Positions 1 to 8,560 of a stretch of 64,000 bases of DNA are shown in pieces. Made by a program: the position numbers and the translations under genes. Every line of letters starts with the position of its first letter. The stretch's first letter is position 1. This stretch comes from Anaeromyxobacteraceae bacterium. Lineage in GTDB: Bacteria; Myxococcota; Myxococcia; Myxococcales; Anaeromyxobacteraceae. Under the pieces are notes generated by a model. That model ran no database searches. It was given only the letters and a program-made list of their open reading frames with translations, and had not been told where the DNA came from. Location of the stretch: positions 1,088,001 through 1,152,000 of the forward strand of contig JASGHJ010000002.1 in assembly GCA_047602405.1 (NCBI GenBank), written 5' to 3'.

Positions 1-1728
1 GAGGAGGGGATCGGCCAGCCCGAGCGTGGTCCTCGAGAGGGCCAGCTCCTGGTGGGCAGCGGAGCGCGCCAGGAACGCCGCGAGCGCGTACGGCGAGCCT
101 GGAGGCGGGACGAGAATTGCCTCCAGGCCAGCGGGTGGGAGGGGCGGATAAGGGTACAGCCCGCTCTCGTCGGGCGCGAGGTATCCGCCCGGTGGGACCT
201 CGACCACGGTCTCGATGCCCGCGGGCAGCTCGACCCACCTGGCCGTGCCCTGGGCGTCGACGACCGTGACGGCGTGCGGGACGAGCGGTGCGAGCTCGCC
301 CCCGGGCGCGGTGAAGGTGAACGCGCGGGTGCTCCCCAGGCCCCACGAGGAGACGAGCGGGAGCCCCTTCACCGTCAGCTGTTCGCGGACCCGCTCCAGC
401 GTCGCGGCGTCGAGGTGGGGTGCGAACGCCTGGACGAGGTCCTCGCCCCGGGCGCTGCCGTCCGCGTGGGCGGCGAGGAAGGCGCGCCACGTGGACCAGA
501 AGGTGTCCTCGCCGAGGAGCACGCGCAGCTGCGAGAGGAGGTAGGCCGCGCGCCGGTACGGGCCGTTCCCGTACTTCTCGACCCCCCGCAGCGACGGGTC
601 GACGATCGCGTCGCCGGCCGCGAACCGGAACTCGCTCCCGAGGAATCGGCCGAGCCCGGCCCGGTCGCGCCCGGCCCGCTCTGCCTCGAAGCCGAGCAGC
701 GTCGCGAAGCCCTCCTTCACGAAGAGGTCGTCCGGCGTGCGGATCGTGACCCAGTCGCCCGCCCACTGGTGCGCGAGCTCGTGGGCGTGCAGCTGCTCCC
801 ACGGGTCCCCGGTCGCCCAGAGCTCGCCGATGAACGTGATCCCGACGTTCTCCATGCCCTGGCCGTAGGGTGGCGTCGGGACGAGCACGACGGCGTAGCT
901 TTTCCAGGGATAGGGCCCGAGGAGCCGCTCGATGCCGGTGAGCTGCGACTCCACGAGGTCGAGGTAGGCGTCCACGTCGAGGAGGAGGCCGCTGCGCCAC
1001 CAGAGCGCCACGGGGTACCGCTCGCCGGAGGGAGACGCGTGGGTGCGGACGCGGCGGTCGAGCGCACCCGCCGCGAAGGCCATCACGTAGGGCGGGATGG
1101 GCCGATCCATCGCGTAGCCGATCCGCCGGCCGCCCGACGAGACCGGCTCATCGAGCACCCGCTCGCCGTTCGCGACGAGGTCGACCCCGTCCGGCACCTC
1201 CAGGCTGAACGAGAAGCGCGCGCGATCCGCGGGCTCGTCGTTCTCGACCATCCAGGTGTGGCCGAGCCGAGGCTCGGAGGCGGTCATGACCAGGGCCGTC
1301 TTCAACGGGTCGCCGGCGCCGGCGCCCTCGCGCGTGAAGAGCAGGCCTCCGCCCGCCGCGGGGGCGACGTACTCGACCTCGAGCTGCACGGTGTCGCCGG
1401 CCTCGCCCGGGACCGGCACGGTCAGCGTCTGCGCCGGGGTGTCGCGGGTGAACGCGGTAACCTTGCCGGCCACCTTCACCGAGAGGACGACGGGGGGCAC
1501 GTCGAGCTCGAGGCTCGCCGCGGCACCCTCGCAGAGCCCCAGCGTGAGGGTCTCCTTCGCGGACAGCGCTCCGGTGGTCCAGTCGAGGCGCCCCGCGACG
1601 TCGTAGGCCAGCGCGTCGTAGGCGCGCGGGCCGGGCGTCGTGTACGCGCACTCCGCCGTGGGCCGGTGCTTCGAGCCGGGGCAGGCGGAGAGGAGGAGGG
1701 CGGAAGCGAGGCAGGCCGGAGCTCGCAT
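1..1728 (-). CDS. M1 family aminopeptidase, lipoprotein (3' end outside window)
   Basis: Manual translation of the minus strand from ATG 1728 gives MRAPACLASALLLSAC (lipobox), a GQGMEN (GAMEN-like) motif and HELAHQW...KEGFA (HEXXH+E). An AAGGAG SD lies upstream. It is absent from the ORF track because it runs off the edge. Confidence 0.85.
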   Translation of the reverse strand, partial: MRAPACLASALLLSACPGSKHRPTAECAYTTPGPRAYDALAYDVAGRLDWTTGALSAKETLTLGLCEGAAASLELDVPPVVLSVKVAGKVTAFTRDTPAQTLTVPVPGEAGDTVQLEVEYVAPAAGGGLLFTREGAGAGDPLKTALVMTASEPRLGHTWMVENDEPADRARFSFSLEVPDGVDLVANGERVLDEPVSSGGRRIGYAMDRPIPPYVMAFAAGALDRRVRTHASPSGERYPVALWWRSGLLLDVDAYLDLVESQLTGIERLLGPYPWKSYAVVLVPTPPYGQGMENVGITFIGELWATGDPWEQLHAHELAHQWAGDWVTIRTPDDLFVKEGFATLLGFEAERAGRDRAGLGRFLGSEFRFAAGDAIVDPSLRGVEKYGNGPYRRAAYLLSQLRVLLGEDTFWSTWRAFLAAHADGSARGEDLVQAFAPHLDAATLERVREQLTVKGLPLVSSWGLGSTRAFTFTAPGGELAPLVPHAVTVVDAQGTARWVELPAGIETVVEVPPGGYLAPDESGLYPYPPLPPAGLEAILVPPPGSPYALAAFLARSAAHQELALSRTTLGLADPLL

Positions 1729-1966
1729 GGGGCGCTCCTTCGCGAGGGAGGCGCCAGCATACGCGGCTGGCAGGCCTTCACGCGCGGTCCATGCAGCCAT
1801 CCGGCCCCGGGCTGCAGGCGCGGGCCGCCACGCCAAGTTCGCGCCACGGCCCGTGTCCCGCGCAGGTCCTTCGCTGCGACCGTCGGCCGCACGCTGCGTA
1901 CAGGGCCGTCCCCACGGCGGTTCTTCCGCGGCCTCCCGTGGCCCGCGATCTGCACTCCTCGCGATG

Positions 1967-1980
1967 TAGCGAACTCGCTA
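1967..1980. promoter_or_regulatory. Inverted repeat TAGCGA-ac-TCGCTA, probable ArsR operator
   Basis: Perfect 6-bp arms ending 7 nt before the arsR ATG. Confidence 0.45.
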
Positions 1981-1987
1981 GGTGACT

Positions 1988-2290
1988 ATGGCCAACGTCT
2001 CGATCCGGAACGATCCAGCCCGCGCGGAGCACGTCGCCACGGTGCTGCGCGCCATCGCGCACCCGCTCCGCGTGCGCATCGTCGCGACGCTCTGCCGCTC
2101 GGAGCTGCACGTCTCGGCGCTCGCCGAGGCGCTCGACGCTCCGCAGGCGATCGTCTCGCAGCAGCTCAAGATCCTGCGCGCGGAGCGGCTCGTCGAGGCC
2201 CGCCGCGAGGATGGGTTCGCCTACTACCGGATCGCGGAGCCTGCGCTCCGCGACCTCGTCTGCTGCATGGAGAAGTGCCGCGCCGCCTGA
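1988..2290 (+). CDS. ArsR/SmtB family repressor (possible BigR/SqrR-like sulfur sensor)
   Basis: LRAIAHPLRVRIV...VSQQLKILR...RREDGFAYYRI winged HTH; Cys in TLCRS and C-terminal CCMEKC. Confidence 0.85.
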   Translation: MANVSIRNDPARAEHVATVLRAIAHPLRVRIVATLCRSELHVSALAEALDAPQAIVSQQLKILRAERLVEARREDGFAYYRIAEPALRDLVCCMEKCRAA

Positions 2291-2312
2291 GGCGGCGAAG
2301 GGAGAGCGCAGC

Positions 2313-4631
2313 ATGGCCATCGGCCGCAGGCAGTTCATCCAGATCGGCGCCGGCGCCGCGGGCGTGGCGGGCGTCTCCGGGCTCTCGAGCCGCTGGTGGG
2401 GGCTCGACGGGGACCCCGTCCGCGACCCGGGCACCGAGGGCGATCACGTCGTCGCGACCTACTGCGAGCTCTGCTTCTGGGGCTGCGGGCAGCTCGCCCA
2501 CGTGAAGGACGGGCGCGTGACGAAGCTCGTCGGCAACCCGGCCCACCCGCTCTCGAACGGCGCGCTCTGCCCGCGCGGCGCGGGCGCGACCGGGCTCCTC
2601 TACGACCCCGATCGCCTGAAGAAGCCGCTCGTCCGCCGCGCCATGCGCGGCGAGGACGTGTTCGAGGAGGTCTCCTGGGACGCCGCGCTCAACGAGGTCT
2701 CCGAGCGCCTCCTCCAGGTGGCGAAGCGGCACGGCCCCGAGGCGGTCGCCCTCTTCACGCACGGCTCGGGTGGCGTGTGGTGGAAGACGTTCATGAAGGC
2801 CTGGGGGTCGCCCAACATCGGCGCCCCGTCCTACGCGCAGTGCCGCGGCCCGCGCGAGGCCGCCTTCACGGTGACCTTCGGCACGCCGCTCGGCTCGCCG
2901 GAGCCGCTCGACCTCGCGAACGCGCGGTGCATCACGCTCATCGGGTCGCACCTCGGCGAGAACATGCACAACACCCAGGTGCAGGAACTCGCCCAGGCCG
3001 TGGGCCGGGGCGCCGCCCTCGTGGTGGTGGACCCCCGCTTCAGCGTCGCGGCCTCGAAGGCGAAGCACTGGCTCCCGGTGAAGCCGGGCACCGACATCGC
3101 GCTCCTCCTCGCGTGGATGAACGTGCTCATCACCGAGAAGCTCTACGACGCCGAGTGGGTGAAGGAGCACGCGGTCGGCTTCGAGCAGCTCGCCGAGCAC
3201 GTGGCCGACAAGACACCGGAGTGGGCCCACCCGATCACGGGCCTCAGGCCCGAGCTCATCCGCGCCTCCGCCCGGACCCTCGGCGGCGCGCGGCCCGCGT
3301 CGCTGATCCATCCCGGCCGCCACACGGTCTGGTACGGCGACGACACGCAGCGCGGCCGCGCGATGGCGATCCTCGCCGCGCTGCTCGGCTCGTGGGGCCG
3401 CCGCGGCGGCTACGTCGCGACGGAGAAGTTCCCGCTCGCGCCGTACCCGCTGCCGGAGGGGCTGCCCCACCTCGTTTCCGGGGGGCTCGGCGCCCCCCGC
3501 CCCGCCGAGCAAGGCTCGTCGGGGCCCCACCCCGGCAGCACCGCGGCTGGCTGGACGCCGCGCCCGAAGGCCGACCTCCCGAAGGCGGGCGGCTACCCGC
3601 TCGCGACCGAGATCATCGCCTCCGGCCTCTGCGACGCGACCCGCCCCGGGCACGCGCTCTACGACCTCAAGGCCTGGATCGTCTACGGCTGCAACCTCGT
3701 CCAGGCCATGCCGGACCGCAAGCAACTCATCGAGACCATGCAGCACCTCGACTTCCTCGTCGCCGTCGACGTGCTGCCCTCCGAGATCGCCGGCTTCGCC
3801 GACGTGGTGCTGCCCGAGACCACCTACCTCGAGCGGCACGACGACCTCTCGGCGCCCGCCTGGAAGCGCCCGTTCGTGGCGCTCCGCCAGCCGGTGGTCG
3901 AGCCGATGTACGACGCGAAGCCGGGCTGGTGGATTGCGAAGGAGCTCGCGACCCGCACCGGGCTCGGCGCGTGGTTCCCGTGGAAGGACGCCGGCGAGTA
4001 CCTCGAGAAGCGGGTCACGGCGAAGGGGCTCGACTGGGAGAAGCTCCGGAAGGACGGCGTCCTCCTCGGCGCGCCCATCGCGACCTGCGAGGAGGAGGGG
4101 CTCCCGGTCTCGATCCCGACCGAGGACGGCAAGGCCCAGCTCTGGTCGAAGGAGCTCGCCGCGTTCGGCTTCGATCCGGTGCCGCAGTACGTGCCGCAGG
4201 AGGAGGCCCCGCAGGGCATGTTCCGCCTCCTCTCCGGGCGCGCGCCGACCCACACCTTCGGCCGCACGGTGAACAACCGGCTCCTCGCCGAGCCGTTCCC
4301 GGAGAACGAGGTCTGGATCAACGCCGCCGTGGCGGCGTCGCTGCCCGGCTTCGAGGAGAAGCCGCTCCGGGACGGCGACCGGGTGGTGCTCGTGAACCAG
4401 GACGGCATCCGATCGACGCCGGTCCGCGCGAAGGTCACCGAGCGCATCCGCGGCGACTGCGTGTTCATGGTCCACGGCTGGGGCCAGACCGCCAGGAAGC
4501 TCCGCTACGCCCACGGCAGGGGCGCCTCCGACTCGGCGCTGACGAGCCGCTACAAGGTGGACCCGATCATGGGCGGGACCGGGATGAGCGTGAACTTCGT
4601 GCGCCTCGAGCGCGCCGCCGAGGTGGCCTGA
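2313..4631 (+). CDS. psrA: Polysulfide/thiosulfate reductase catalytic molybdopterin subunit (PsrA/PhsA-like)
   Basis: Tat motif GRRQFI; CELCFWGC...LCPRG Fe-S motif; APSYAQCRGPRE with Cys as the likely Mo ligand; PGTDIA; DVVLPETTYLER. Confidence 0.8.
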   Translation: MAIGRRQFIQIGAGAAGVAGVSGLSSRWWGLDGDPVRDPGTEGDHVVATYCELCFWGCGQLAHVKDGRVTKLVGNPAHPLSNGALCPRGAGATGLLYDPDRLKKPLVRRAMRGEDVFEEVSWDAALNEVSERLLQVAKRHGPEAVALFTHGSGGVWWKTFMKAWGSPNIGAPSYAQCRGPREAAFTVTFGTPLGSPEPLDLANARCITLIGSHLGENMHNTQVQELAQAVGRGAALVVVDPRFSVAASKAKHWLPVKPGTDIALLLAWMNVLITEKLYDAEWVKEHAVGFEQLAEHVADKTPEWAHPITGLRPELIRASARTLGGARPASLIHPGRHTVWYGDDTQRGRAMAILAALLGSWGRRGGYVATEKFPLAPYPLPEGLPHLVSGGLGAPRPAEQGSSGPHPGSTAAGWTPRPKADLPKAGGYPLATEIIASGLCDATRPGHALYDLKAWIVYGCNLVQAMPDRKQLIETMQHLDFLVAVDVLPSEIAGFADVVLPETTYLERHDDLSAPAWKRPFVALRQPVVEPMYDAKPGWWIAKELATRTGLGAWFPWKDAGEYLEKRVTAKGLDWEKLRKDGVLLGAPIATCEEEGLPVSIPTEDGKAQLWSKELAAFGFDPVPQYVPQEEAPQGMFRLLSGRAPTHTFGRTVNNRLLAEPFPENEVWINAAVAASLPGFEEKPLRDGDRVVLVNQDGIRSTPVRAKVTERIRGDCVFMVHGWGQTARKLRYAHGRGASDSALTSRYKVDPIMGGTGMSVNFVRLERAAEVA
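3464..3555. repeat. Palindromic element apparently inserted in frame in psrA
   Basis: Two hairpins (GGGGGGC-tcggc-GCCCCCC; CCCCGCCGAGC-aag-GCTCGTCGGGG) and a repeated GCCCCAC at 3464 and 3524; encodes a low-complexity G/P/S peptide. Confidence 0.5.
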
Positions 4632-4633
4632 CC

Positions 4634-5182
4634 ATGGCGAAGGATCTCAAGCGGTACGGCATGGCGGTCGACACCCGGCGCTGCGTCGGGTGCAACGCCT
4701 GCGTCATCTCCTGCAAGACCGAGAACGCGCTCCCCGAGGGCGGCTTCCGCGACTGGGTCGTGCAGGAGACCTGGGGGACCTTCCCGGAGCTCTCGATGCA
4801 GATCCGCTCCGAGCGCTGCAACCACTGCTCGGACACGCCCTGCGTCTCGGCCTGCCCGACCGGCGCGAGCCACGTGGGGGAGGGCGGCACCGTCCTCGTG
4901 AACCCCGCGAAGTGCACGGGCTGCAAGGCCTGCATGGCCTCCTGCCCGTACGGCGCCCGCTACGTCCACCCCGACGGCCACGTCGACAAGTGCACCTTCT
5001 GCCTGCACCGCGTGACGAAGGGGAAGGATCCCGCCTGCGTCGAGACCTGCCCGACCCGCGCGCTCACCTTCGGCGACCTCGCCGATCGGGAGAGCCCGGT
5101 CGCGAGGCTCCTCGCCGCGCGCCGCCACGAGGTGGTGAAGCCCGAGGCCGGCACGAAGCCCAACGTCTTCTTCCTCGTATGA
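4634..5182 (+). CDS. psrB: 4x[4Fe-4S] electron-transfer subunit (PsrB/NrfC-like)
   Basis: CVGCNACVISC, CNHCSDTPCVSACP, CTGCKACMASCP, KCTFC...PACVETCP. Confidence 0.9.
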   Translation: MAKDLKRYGMAVDTRRCVGCNACVISCKTENALPEGGFRDWVVQETWGTFPELSMQIRSERCNHCSDTPCVSACPTGASHVGEGGTVLVNPAKCTGCKACMASCPYGARYVHPDGHVDKCTFCLHRVTKGKDPACVETCPTRALTFGDLADRESPVARLLAARRHEVVKPEAGTKPNVFFLV

Positions 5183-5751
5183 GCGAGGTCGTGATGGAAT
5201 CGACGAACTCCGTTGGCCCCGAGCCTCAGGGTGCCGTTCGCCCCGAGCCTGTCGAGCGGCCCTTCTGGAACCCCTATCTCGGCGGCGCCGCGCTCGGCCT
5301 CGTGCTCCTCACCGCGTACATGGTGATGGGCAAGGGCCTGGGCGCCTCCGGCGCCTCCTTCCGCCTCGGCGTCGCCGCCGTCTCGGTGTTCGCGCCGGGG
5401 CATGCCGCCACCGCGCCGGGCCTGAGGTCGGTGGCGGCCGCGCCCTTCGACGACTGGCTCGTCTTCGAGGTGCTCGGCGTCGTCCTCGGCGGCCTCGTGG
5501 GCGCGTACACCTCGGGGCGCCTCAGGCTCGAGGTGCTGCGCGGCCCGGCGATCTCCGTGGGCGCGCGCCTCGCGATGGCGCTCGGCGGCGGCCTCCTGAT
5601 GGGCTTCGCGGCGAAGCTCGCGCGCGGCTGCACCTCCGGCCAGGCGCTCTCCGGCGGCGCGATGCTCTCGGCGGGCTCCTGGGCCTTCATGATGATGGTC
5701 TTCGCGGGCGGCTACGCCTTCGCGTGGACGGTGAGGAGGGCCTGGCGATGA
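5179..5751 (+). CDS. YeeE/YedE family sulfur-compound transporter (N-type half)
   Basis: WNPYLGG, GLGASG, GFAAKLARGCTSGQALSG motifs; ATGA overlap with psrB; alternative start at 5194. Confidence 0.85.
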   Translation: MSEVVMESTNSVGPEPQGAVRPEPVERPFWNPYLGGAALGLVLLTAYMVMGKGLGASGASFRLGVAAVSVFAPGHAATAPGLRSVAAAPFDDWLVFEVLGVVLGGLVGAYTSGRLRLEVLRGPAISVGARLAMALGGGLLMGFAAKLARGCTSGQALSGGAMLSAGSWAFMMMVFAGGYAFAWTVRRAWR

Positions 5752-6947
5752 CGTTCCCCTTCGACGTCCTCGTGCACGGGGGCCGGGAGCTCGGCCTCGT
5801 CGTCGCCGTCGCGATCGGCTTCGGCTTCGGGTTCGTGCTCGAGCGCTCCGGCTTCGGCCGCGCGCAGAAGCTCGTGGCGCAGTTCTTCGGCGACGACATG
5901 ACCGTGTTCAAGGTCATGTTCGGCGCCATCGTCACCGCGATGCTCGGGGCGGTGGTGCTCTCCGGCCTCGGCCTCGCCGACCTCAGGGCCATCGCCGACA
6001 GCGCGACCAGCGCGACCTGGCTGTGGCCCATGATCGCCGGCGGGTTCCTCCTCGGCGTGGGCTTCATCGTCTCCGGCTACTGCCCGGGGACCTCGGTCGT
6101 GGCCGCCGCCTCCGGCAAGCTCGACGGCCTCGCCACGGTGGTCGGCGTCGTCGCCGGCACCGTCGTCTACGGCGAGCTCATGGCGTGGGCGCCCTTCGCG
6201 GCGTTCAGCGACTCCGGCTACCTCGGCCACGTCTACCTGTACGAGCTCCTCCACCTGCCGCCCGCTGTGGTGGCGCTCTTCGTCGCCGCGATGGCGGTGG
6301 CCTGCTTCGTCGGCGCGGAGAAGCTCGAGGCGATCTTCTCGAAGGGGGCGGCCTCGTCTCCGTCGGGTCCGAGGCGCCTCGTGTTCGCCGGCTTCGGCGC
6401 CGTAGCCCTCGCGGGCGTCGCCACGCTCGCGCTGCCCTCGGCCACCGCGGCCGTCGCCGCGCCCGCCCGCATCGACCCCGAGGCGCTCGCGCACCGGGTG
6501 GTCGAGGCGCCCTGGAACGTGCGCGTGCTCGACCTCCGCGCCGCGGAGGCCTGTGGCCAGGCCCGCGTCCCCGGCGCCGAGTGCGCGCCGGCCGCGAGCC
6601 TCGCAGAGCTCGACCTCGGCTTCGCCCCGGCCTCGCGCGACCTCGTCCTCGTCGCGGACGGCGACCTCGCCGAGGTCCCCGCCGCGGCGCGCGCCTACCG
6701 CGGCCGCGTGCTCGTCCTCGAGGGCGGCTGGGAGGCCTGGAAGACCTGGGCCCTCGACCGCGAGGACGCCGTGCAGTCGATGCCGGCCCCGGGCGCGCCC
6801 GCCGCCGACGTCGCCGCCTACCGGTTCCGCAACGCGGTCAACGCCGCCCTCACCGGCGTGAAGGTCGCGCCGCCCCCCGCGCCGGCCGCCGGCGGCGGGA
6901 TGCCCGCCCCGAAGCGCAAGGCCTCGGGCGGCGGCTGCAGCGGCTAG
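5748..6947 (+). CDS. YeeE/YedE protein fused to a rhodanese-like domain and a Cys-tipped C-terminal tail
   Basis: GFGFGFVLERSGF, GYCPGT; then VRVLDLR...ARVPGA...VLEGGWEAW (rhodanese fold); ends PPPAPAAGGGMPAPKRKASGGGCSG. Confidence 0.8.
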   Translation: MTFPFDVLVHGGRELGLVVAVAIGFGFGFVLERSGFGRAQKLVAQFFGDDMTVFKVMFGAIVTAMLGAVVLSGLGLADLRAIADSATSATWLWPMIAGGFLLGVGFIVSGYCPGTSVVAAASGKLDGLATVVGVVAGTVVYGELMAWAPFAAFSDSGYLGHVYLYELLHLPPAVVALFVAAMAVACFVGAEKLEAIFSKGAASSPSGPRRLVFAGFGAVALAGVATLALPSATAAVAAPARIDPEALAHRVVEAPWNVRVLDLRAAEACGQARVPGAECAPAASLAELDLGFAPASRDLVLVADGDLAEVPAAARAYRGRVLVLEGGWEAWKTWALDREDAVQSMPAPGAPAADVAAYRFRNAVNAALTGVKVAPPPAPAAGGGMPAPKRKASGGGCSG

Positions 6948-6963
6948 CCCCGGGAGACACGCC

Positions 6964-7893
6964 ATGCACGAGCTCGACACCTCTCGCCACAGCCACCTCG
7001 TCGATCCCCAGCTCCACGTGTGGGGCTGGGAAATCCCGGTCTACCTCTTCCTCGGCGGCATGGCCGCGGGGCTGATGATCACGACCTCTCTCCTCGCCGG
7101 CCGCGAGGGCGAGCGCAGCCGGGCCGCCCGCTGGCTCGGGCTCGCCGCGCCGGTGCTCGTCTCCCTCGGGATGGGCGCGCTGTTCCTGGACCTCGCGAAC
7201 CGCCTCCACGCCTACCGCTTCTACCTCGCGCTGCGGCCCACGAGCCCGATGAGCTGGGGCGCGTGGATCCTGCTCGTCGTCTACCCGGTGACGCTCCTCG
7301 GCGGCATCGGCGGGCTGACCGGCGCAGACGCGGCGCTCCTCGCGGCGCGGGCGGGGCCGCTCGGCGGCGCGGTGCGGTGGGCGCGGGCCTTCGCCGCGCC
7401 TCGTGCCGCGGCGCTCCGGGCCTGGACGCTCTGGACCGGCGTCGCGCTCGGCGTCTACACCGGGATCCTGCTCTCGTCCCTCGGCGCGCGGGCGCTCTGG
7501 GCCTCGCCGCTCCTCGGTCCGCTCTTCCTCGCCTCCGGCGTCTCCACCGGCGCGGCCTTCATGCTGCTCTTCGGCCTCGACGCCGGCGAGCGGCACGCGG
7601 TCTCGCGCTGGCACCTCGCCGCGGTGGGCCTCGAGGTGGCGCTCCTCGCGCTCTTCCTCGTGGGGCTCCTCGCCGGCGGCCAGGCGAGCCGCGACGCGGC
7701 GCAGCTCCTGCTGGGTGGCAGGTTCACCGCGGCGTTCTGGGCGCTCGTCGTGATCGCGGGCCTCGGGGTCCCGGTGGCGCTCGAGCTCGGGGAGGCGCGG
7801 CTGCGCCTGCGCCCCACGCTCGCCGCGCCCGCGCTCGTGCTCCTCGGCGGGCTCTCGCTGCGCTGGATCCTGGTGGCCGCAGGGCAGCTGTGA
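6964..7893 (+). CDS. psrC: Polysulfide reductase membrane anchor (NrfD/PsrC family)
   Basis: WGWEIPVYLFLGG, SPMSWGAWIL, YTGILL, LRW motifs; about 8 TM segments. Confidence 0.9.
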   Translation: MHELDTSRHSHLVDPQLHVWGWEIPVYLFLGGMAAGLMITTSLLAGREGERSRAARWLGLAAPVLVSLGMGALFLDLANRLHAYRFYLALRPTSPMSWGAWILLVVYPVTLLGGIGGLTGADAALLAARAGPLGGAVRWARAFAAPRAAALRAWTLWTGVALGVYTGILLSSLGARALWASPLLGPLFLASGVSTGAAFMLLFGLDAGERHAVSRWHLAAVGLEVALLALFLVGLLAGGQASRDAAQLLLGGRFTAAFWALVVIAGLGVPVALELGEARLRLRPTLAAPALVLLGGLSLRWILVAAGQL

Positions 7894-7924
7894 GCCTCGA
7901 CGGTGGGCCGCTCGCCCGGCGGGC

Positions 7925-8560
7925 TCAGCCCCGGAGGAAGCGCCAGAGCGCTCCCGCCGACGGCGCCACGCGGAAGAGCGCCCAGAGCACCCGGCGCCGC
8001 GCGCGGCCCCGGCCCGCGGGGCGCACGCGCTCGAGCAGCAGGCGCGCCGCGTCGCGCTCGCCGCGCCGCGCGTAGACCGGGGCGAGCGCGAGCGCGCCCT
8101 CGAGGTGCCGCGGCTCCTCCCGGAGCGCGCGCTCGAGGAGCGACACGCCGGCGTCCTGCCGCCCGGCCCTCAGCTGCGCCCGGCCGCCGGCCACGAGCCC
8201 GTTCACCGCGTCCTGCCGGCGCCCCCGCAGGAGCTCCAGGCGCGCGAGCTCGAGCCGGAAGCCCGCGTCGAGCGGGAGCGCGCGCACCGCCGCGGCGTTG
8301 ACCGCCACGGCACGGTCGGTGAACCCGGCCTCGAGGTGGCGCTGGGCCGCCACGCGGAACGAGCGCGCCGCGCCGTCGCCGTCGCCCATGCGCGCGAGCA
8401 CGGGGCCGAGCTTCACGTGCACGGCGGGATCGGTGTCGTCGGCGCCGAGCGCCTCGCGGTAGCCCGAGACCGCGGCGTCGAGGCGGCCCTTCACGCGCGC
8501 CCGGTCGGCGGCGGCGATGAGCTCGGCCCGGGTGCGCGGGCGGCGGCGGAAAGGCCACAT
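7925..8560 (-). CDS. Tetratricopeptide-repeat-like protein
   Basis: C-terminal part of the long antisense ORF from ATG 8560 (MWPFRRRP...); TPR-like helices AVSGYREAL, VSLLERALREEP. Confidence 0.65.
   Translation of the reverse strand: MWPFRRRPRTRAELIAAADRARVKGRLDAAVSGYREALGADDTDPAVHVKLGPVLARMGDGDGAARSFRVAAQRHLEAGFTDRAVAVNAAAVRALPLDAGFRLELARLELLRGRRQDAVNGLVAGGRAQLRAGRQDAGVSLLERALREEPRHLEGALALAPVYARRGERDAARLLLERVRPAGRGRARRRVLWALFRVAPSAGALWRFLRG

Follow-up and report, generated by a model that had tools for sequence, protein, structure and literature searches.

The window, by which is meant the whole stretch of 64,000 nucleotides analysed here, contains a psr operon with the gene order arsR-psrA-psrB-yeeE(C-half)-yeeE(N-half)::rhodanese::tail-nrfD. 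The two YeeE-arm genes are located between psrB and psrC, the latter being the nrfD gene, and the stop and start codons overlap. The features, with positions in the window, are as follows.

1988..2290, + strand: ArsR/SmtB-family repressor, first gene of the operon (Pfam HTH_5; NCBIfam NF033788 above cut-off)
2313..4631, + strand: PsrA-type Mo-bisPGD subunit with a twin-arginine leader, a 4Fe-4S motif and Cys177 at the Mo-ligand position
4631..5182, + strand: PsrB-type 4Fe-4S subunit (Pfam Fer4_11; NrfC/TtrB-like)
5194..5751, + strand, start possibly 5179: YeeE C-terminal half, PmpA-like (PF04143 positions 174-309; alignment to 6LEO/8J4C)
5748..6947, + strand: fused ORF, YeeE N-half::helix::rhodanese::tail, 399 aa, ending ...KRKASGGGCSG-TAG
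5748..6347, + strand: YeeE N-terminal half, PmpB-like, residues 1-200 of the fused ORF (PF04143 positions 1-198; 8J4C_B at Z 8.0)
6363..6434, + strand: extra transmembrane helix, residues 206-229 (AF2 helix 206-228; predicted to run from cytoplasm to periplasm)
6453..6758, + strand: rhodanese-fold domain without a catalytic Cys (structure matches to rhodaneses; Cys counts in the loop)
6855..6947, + strand: Pro/Ala/Gly linker, KRK (6912-6920) and terminal GGGCSG, the proposed carrier arm
6964..7893, + strand: NrfD/PsrC quinol-reactive membrane anchor (Pfam PF03916, E 3e-36)

The enzyme genes displayed features of the Psr/Phs/Srr family, namely a Tat leader, a 4Fe-4S motif, a Cys ligand to Mo and an NrfD anchor. 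The nearest solved structure to PsrA was that of T. thermophilus PsrA (2VPW, E 1e-210), and the score against the PhsA model was 438 bits, below the cut-off of 694. C177 was found in 38 of 40 aligned PsrA sequences, the other 2 rows being gapped. The ArsR protein scored 64 bits with the BigR model (cut-off 155). An alignment of 21 ArsR proteins from module loci showed that they keep Cys residues of the CxxxC type in the last helix, placed differently from those of the best match to the BigR model, and ArsR is possibly a candidate sensor of sulfane or persulfide sulfur. A search of 1700-8200 for sigma-70 promoters and terminators gave no match, which is uninformative at the GC content of the locus. 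The source assembly is 6.16 Mb and 98% complete, and its nearest named relative is an Anaeromyxobacter MAG whose protein is 97% identical to the fused one. None of the sequencing runs covers as much as half of this locus; with RNA shares of 0.06-0.09, these runs give no evidence on its expression. Elsewhere in the window, the GC content falls to 0.56-0.68 in 24000-32000 from about 0.75 in the rest, and this segment is a probable horizontally acquired island.

The motifs quoted in the initial annotation were all found in the translation of the ORF 5748-6947. LVLVADGD comprises residues 299-306, EACG contains C269 (6552-6554), AECA contains C279 (6582-6584), and the terminal Cys, encoded at 6936-6938, is C397. 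The annotation had named a YeeE domain followed by a rhodanese-like fold. YeeE is indeed present (PF04143), albeit as the N-terminal half only, the C-terminal half being the upstream gene 5194-5751. Together the two adjacent genes form a split YeeE, with one Cys at each of the C91 and C293 positions of PF04143. C112, the Cys of GYCPG (codon 6081-6083), corresponds to C91 of S. thermophila and C94 of E. coli and is kept in 106/106 rows; C146 of the upstream gene corresponds to C293 of S. thermophila and C302 of E. coli, the periplasm-side Cys, and is kept in 103/103 rows. The position of C22/C25 is occupied by Gly in the N-half of the window by HMM alignment to E. coli TsuA. PmpB/PmpA is such a split YeeE arrangement (PMC11582611, excerpt), and the two halves are predicted to form a heterodimer.

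The AF2 model of the 399-aa protein (pLDDT 81, 40-row alignment) shows membrane helices, then a compact fold over residues 236-337, and is disordered at the end, where the tail residues 393-399 have pLDDT below 50. YeeE was not among the top rows of the Foldseek 'pdb' search, while the VIA match to 8J4C_B stood at Z 8.0. Residues 235-336 of the model resemble rhodaneses in both Foldseek and VIA-align, the best fold match quoted being GlpE 1GN0 (Z 12.2, rmsd 2.7 across 98 residues in VIA-align), and Pfam Rhodanese matched weakly to residues 257-332 (E 0.0018, 19 bits; cut-off 22.2). No NCBIfam model covers the tailed domain. Alignment to solved rhodaneses placed A303 (6654-6656) at the catalytic position, or D304 in one alignment. 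The loop without Cys noted from the sequence was borne out among the homologues, where a Cys occurred in the loop (301-306) in 0/120 close, 3/106 distant and 2/60 locus-derived rows; the exceptions are a few distant homologues that hold the loop Cys and the tail Cys together. The two further Cys reported near this loop, C269 and C279, are likewise present. They occur together in 18/106 distant rows and singly in 1/106, and were rejected as catalytic residues given that only about 18/106 distant rows have them, almost always paired. Because the pair is subfamily-specific and occurs as a pair, it is likely to be a structural disulfide. The rhodanese fold itself is predicted to serve as a scaffold. 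In one clade of split tailed rhodaneses ending EGC (L050:7365-7991, L051:7269-7877, L052:8494-9108), a CxxCH motif lies within the rhodanese domain and is a possible c-type heme site.

Conservation of the terminal Cys, which the annotation had proposed to check, was confirmed by the homologue alignments. C112, C269, C279 and C397 were invariant in the best 120 of 1030 homologues. Among the best 150 of 2539 cluster representatives, the terminal Cys was kept in 93 of 105 full-length proteins of 27-60% identity, where full-length means 350 aa or longer and a tail is GC plus at most three residues at the end. The 45 shorter rows were set aside; 23 of those end in GC. The 12 misses comprised 3 with a near-terminal Cys lacking Gly, 2 with extra rhodanese domains and 7 that by eye were apparently frameshifted or truncated; a frameshift is also suspected in at least 2 of the 93 tail-positive rows, whose match may be fortuitous. 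One tail-less homologue, P0326, instead has a tandem rhodanese appended to it, with a Cys in the loop. As a control for chance, GGC plus at most three residues stood at 4 of 5680 coding-like ORF ends in the source genome, as delimited by a crude ORF caller, and 3 of those 4 were rhodanese-like proteins adjoining the three YeeE loci of this genome. A C-terminal Cys-Sec selenoprotein was considered and rejected, as the window protein ends in GCSG-TAG and 12 of 36 homologues with GC before the stop end in TAA or TAG (TGA 24, TAA 7, TAG 5). Read-through at a selenocysteine codon was also discarded, the two matches with 'TGA inside' being ordinary stops after GGGC.

The S. thermophila YeeE has its N-terminus outside, C22 on the cytoplasm side and C293 on the periplasm side (PMC7449682, excerpt). 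Across 60 homologues, predicted inside loops had a mean K+R of 3.9 and 5.4 and two outside loops of 0.6 and 1.5, with the exception of the predicted inside loop 120-127, which is not basic (K+R 0.8). The most basic of these loops (5.4) comes after the H7 equivalent and directly precedes the extra helix. Split homologues start with a hydrophobic signal or anchor in place of that helix, and the tail Cys was the sole Cys after it in 15 of the 16 split forms listed. Because of the YeeE topology, the basic loop and then one further helix, the domain and its tail are predicted to face the periplasm, the same side as the Tat-exported PsrA and the outer Cys of the channel. The side on which the tail lies, a question raised in the annotation, is thus predicted from YeeE homology, K+R counts and the anchors of split forms. 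Regarding the suggested replacement of a separate carrier, the tail could fill the place of Sud or SoxY. It could not replace YeeD/TusA, because the tail is predicted to be periplasmic and YeeD is cytoplasmic (PMC11582611, excerpt). The tailed protein has no PF01206 (TusA) match and the operon no cytoplasmic YeeD/TusA gene; the source genome has four TusA-family matches elsewhere.

The arm was found in named homologues from Myxococcota, Bacteroidota, Ignavibacteria, Gemmatimonadota, Planctomycetota, Fibrobacterales, Pseudobdellovibrionaceae and Reinekea. A single-protein search of genome contigs found only 2 loci, and a profile search for stand-alone tailed forms gave mainly fused proteins and fragments. 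In 80 metagenome loci, the best 80 of 573 confirmed, the domain was fused in 49, split in 19 and not in view in 12, and 56 of 57 complete domains keep the tail Cys. Psr-type enzyme genes were seen in 33 of these loci and Otr-type genes in 19; 1 locus had both, and the 27 with neither were mostly short contigs. Two cultured Bacteroidota illustrate the range: Fulvitalea has Otr and a fused arm, and Chondrinema has Psr and a split arm, WP_284687217. PsrA, proposed as the partner of the arm, is therefore not its only one, as the same arm is found in Otr operons and two genomes have PsrABC without YeeE or arm in the operon. A gene for a FadL/OMPP1-family outer-membrane channel flanks several psr operons (L045:11524-12891, L047:15251-16714, L048:9926-11215), and this channel may let polysulfide in.

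All three YeeE loci of the source genome bear a GGC-type tail. Besides the psr operon there are two further modules.

G000:C1:203577-209275, second module: Otr (above the TIGR04315 cut-off), a heptaheme/cytochrome b fusion, a YeeE pair and a tailed rhodanese ending KGGCG
G000:C1:217800-225000, third module: ArsR-rhodanese regulator, exported tandem rhodanese, full-length YeeE, tailed gene and DMSO-reductase-family operon

The enzyme operon of the third module belongs to the type II DMSO-reductase family, its tailed rhodanese-like gene ends GGGCL, and SQR-like and SorA-like genes lie directly upstream; with the Otr locus it constitutes a sulfur island of about 25 kb. Two of the three tailed paralogues, the fused gene of the second module and the tailed gene of the third, are frameshifted in the source assembly, which may reflect sequencing error or decay.

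The tail was also encountered on an unrelated scaffold. Where the YeeE N-half has no tether, it is followed by a signal-peptide protein of about 100 aa ending KKxGGC or KKAAGC (L073:1805-2116, L160:6411-6725, L142:1498-1824). Its model is an OB barrel (pLDDT 78, 4-row alignment; Foldseek best E 8.5e-4), and no Pfam or NCBIfam family matched it above cut-off. It weakly resembles ExtJ (E 0.002-0.007, below cut-off) and is CusF-like with a score of 0.90; an identity as ExtJ was rejected on that below-cut-off score and with ExtJ matches above cut-off in 0/151 genomes. In a quick midpoint-rooted tree of 104 YeeE N-halves, made without a clade test, the untethered halves formed one clade (SH-aLRT 95) nested in a clade (99) containing the window protein. 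This suggests that the tether was lost once, in one event in which another tailed protein was recruited.

A survey of 301 Myxococcota genomes, one of them (G196) unpublished and included in this total only, identified PsrA at E up to 1e-150 in 33, of which 31 have YeeE plus a GC-tailed protein; related genomes among the 33 are not independent. The arm was fused in 26 (25 on the PsrA contig), split in 1 and present as YeeE plus the OB protein in 4, of which 3 have it in the psr operon and 1 on another contig. In the two remaining genomes, G027 and G130 from a single genus, psrABC is present, YeeE has no match and the operon lacks an arm; Psr can therefore occur independently of the module. Judged by gene co-occurrence, the association of the arm with YeeE is closer than that with Psr. 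The OB protein, which precedes Psr or octaheme genes, follows a DUF3373 gene in 6 of 9 matches where YeeE is missing from the surrounding 1.5 kb or so, with an octaheme gene next in 4, and the tail is therefore not specific to YeeE. By comparison of these sequences, then, the tail appears as the conserved element and the scaffold as replaceable. A further lead came from T. thermophilus, whose PsrA (2VPW chain A, about 380-395) has GGCSG in a variable internal loop and whose genome, used as a control, has no PF04143 match. In the corresponding loop (near 3470-3560 in the PsrA of the window), GGC was found in 0 of 40 PsrA from arm-bearing loci, and a plasmid search for more PsrA with an internal GGC loop gave the Chondrinema record only. 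The Thermus loop could be an arm in cis, but as the only such case it serves as no more than a lead.

On balance, and with confidence a little above even, we read the GGC tail as a membrane-tethered persulfide carrier arm linking the YeeE channel and the neighbouring reductase. Cys397, predicted to be periplasmic, would hold sulfane sulfur and pass it between the outer Cys146 of the channel and the reductase. Its thiolate would attack polysulfide, thiosulfate or tetrathionate, or take sulfur from Cys146, giving a persulfide or S-thiosulfonate on C397, and the linker of about 28 residues would allow the loaded C397 to extend either to Cys146 at the mouth of the channel or to the Mo site of PsrA. 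From Cys146 the sulfur could be relayed to Cys112 and then to a cytoplasmic thiol; at the Mo site, electrons from quinol via PsrC and PsrB would release HS-. Passage through the channel may serve import, export or signalling to ArsR. The pattern suits a carrier whose function would depend on a single exposed thiol in the periplasm and not on the fold. Precedents are found in Sud, which presents polysulfide to Psr (PMC2628731, excerpt), in a transfer from SoxY to SoxT proposed as conceivable (PMC11582611, excerpt) and in the divergent soxY (soxY-S3) that adjoins otr (PMC11237559, excerpt).

The arm might instead load the YeeE channel only, importing sulfane sulfur for ArsR signalling or for assimilation, and would then make no contact with the reductase, its genes being merely co-regulated with it. 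This would account for its absence from the two Psr operons without YeeE and for the other tailed protein where the tether was lost; ArsR with a conserved C-terminal Cys heads many loci, SoxT1B is described as a signal transducer (PMC11582611, excerpt), and YedE1E2 imports zero-valent sulfur (PMC10812762, excerpt). We consider it unlikely, however, in view of the DUF3373-OB-octaheme loci, where a tailed protein stands beside an enzyme with no adjacent YeeE, of the GGCSG loop in T. thermophilus PsrA itself, and of the overlapping YeeE-arm genes in the psrB/psrC interval of the psr operon. Since disulfides form easily on a single Cys exposed to the oxidising periplasm, Cys397 could have a thiol-redox or structural role and carry no sulfur, for example by a disulfide to Cys146 that gates or protects it, or between subunits. 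A DsbD-like/thioredoxin gene pair about 1 kb from one Otr-type locus (L046) is in line with such a role, which is nonetheless improbable: Cys397 has no CxxC partner, and sulfur carriage is better matched by the SoxY-like Gly-Gly-Cys context and by P0326, where a catalytic-type rhodanese takes the place of the tail.

Binding of selenium or a soft metal by the tail, in the service of selenite respiration or metal handling, has in its favour that selenite is among the substrates of the Psr/Phs/Srr family (PMC10100899, excerpt) and that a selenite reductase of this family has rhodanese genes in its operon (PMC12481199, excerpt). ExtM-like cytochromes flank some loci, and the OB protein has the weak resemblance to ExtJ and CusF given above. 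On the other hand, ExtKL is itself a polysulfide reductase (PMC13510729, excerpt). The tail, moreover, is not a selenocysteine site, as the TAA and TAG ends indicate, and the other two YeeE loci of the genome neighbour Otr, SQR-like, SorA-like and rhodanese genes, so that we hold this reading, too, to have little chance of being correct. The YedE/FdhT family is thought to deliver a sulfido or selenido ligand for formate dehydrogenase, and the module could mature the molybdoenzyme by supplying such a ligand; the matches to YedE/FdhT models, although weak, and the insertion of the genes in a Mo-enzyme operon point in this direction. Yet in 19 of the 80 loci the module goes with Otr systems, which contain heme only, and Tat substrates receive their cofactors in the cytoplasm, on the opposite side from the predicted periplasmic location of the arm, which makes maturation highly improbable.

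Returning to the carrier arm, the fusion is real, strongly conserved and apparently undescribed in print; no description of a YeeE-rhodanese fusion with a GGC tail was found in a literature search outside of which most subscription papers fall. It is conceivable, though we remain doubtful, that across many phyla sulfur respiration in the periplasm uses protein-bound sulfur, carried by a Gly-Gly-Cys arm on unrelated scaffolds, these being the inactive rhodanese, the OB fold, SoxY and the loop inside Thermus PsrA. If so, the arm would be the reductive counterpart of SoxYZ, connecting porins and YeeE channels with Psr, with Otr and with other Mo enzymes, and the loaded arm would be the real in vivo substrate of Otr and of these Psr enzymes. 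The matter bears on the entry and exit of sulfane sulfur at the periplasm side of YeeE-type channels (PMC11582611, excerpt) and on the in vivo role of Otr, whose physiological substrate is unsettled (PMC12949373, excerpt). A tethered arm with a single Cys would also give a marker gene for arm-based sulfur respiration.

Among known systems, the PsrABC of Thermus thermophilus (2VPW-2VPZ) and the SrrABC-SrrEF of Bacillus selenitireducens belong to the same Mo-enzyme family as the PsrA of the window, the Thermus enzyme differing in its internal GGCSG loop from the PsrA of arm-bearing loci. Rhodanese genes are found in the srr operon (PMC12481199) and in the psr operon of Desulfurivibrio (PMC12142623), for which the excerpted published accounts mention no YeeE or tailed domain. 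PmpA/PmpB, which are YedE1/YedE2, likewise consist of two halves with one Cys each at C91 and C293 (PMC11582611, excerpt). Compared with these and with YeeE(TsuA)-YeeD(TsuB), the N-half of the window adds H7, the extra helix and the predicted periplasmic domain. Sud of Wolinella succinogenes (1QXN) uses the Cys of its active-site loop and is a separate protein, whereas the domain of the window has an Ala there, a conserved tail Cys and a fusion to a channel half. Sud is also a periplasmic rhodanese fold serving PsrABC (PMC2628731, excerpt), matched at Z 8.0 but with an rmsd of 11.3.

The likeness to the 'swinging arm' of SoxY, which had been drawn from the sequence, stands as far as the flexible end is concerned: both proteins have a flexible C-terminal Gly-Gly-Cys arm in the periplasm, in the present case by prediction. 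It does not extend to the family, since the window protein has no PF13501 match (E up to 0.1) and is a membrane-tethered rhodanese fold instead. The SoxY motif is VTIGGC (PMC11237559, excerpt), of which the tail in the window shares GGC only. A sox context is absent from the operon and no SoxY match was found in the 98% complete genome, the partners of the arm being reductase-type operons, and the likeness to SoxY is probably convergent. The tailed module would work like SoxY or Sud but belongs to neither family.
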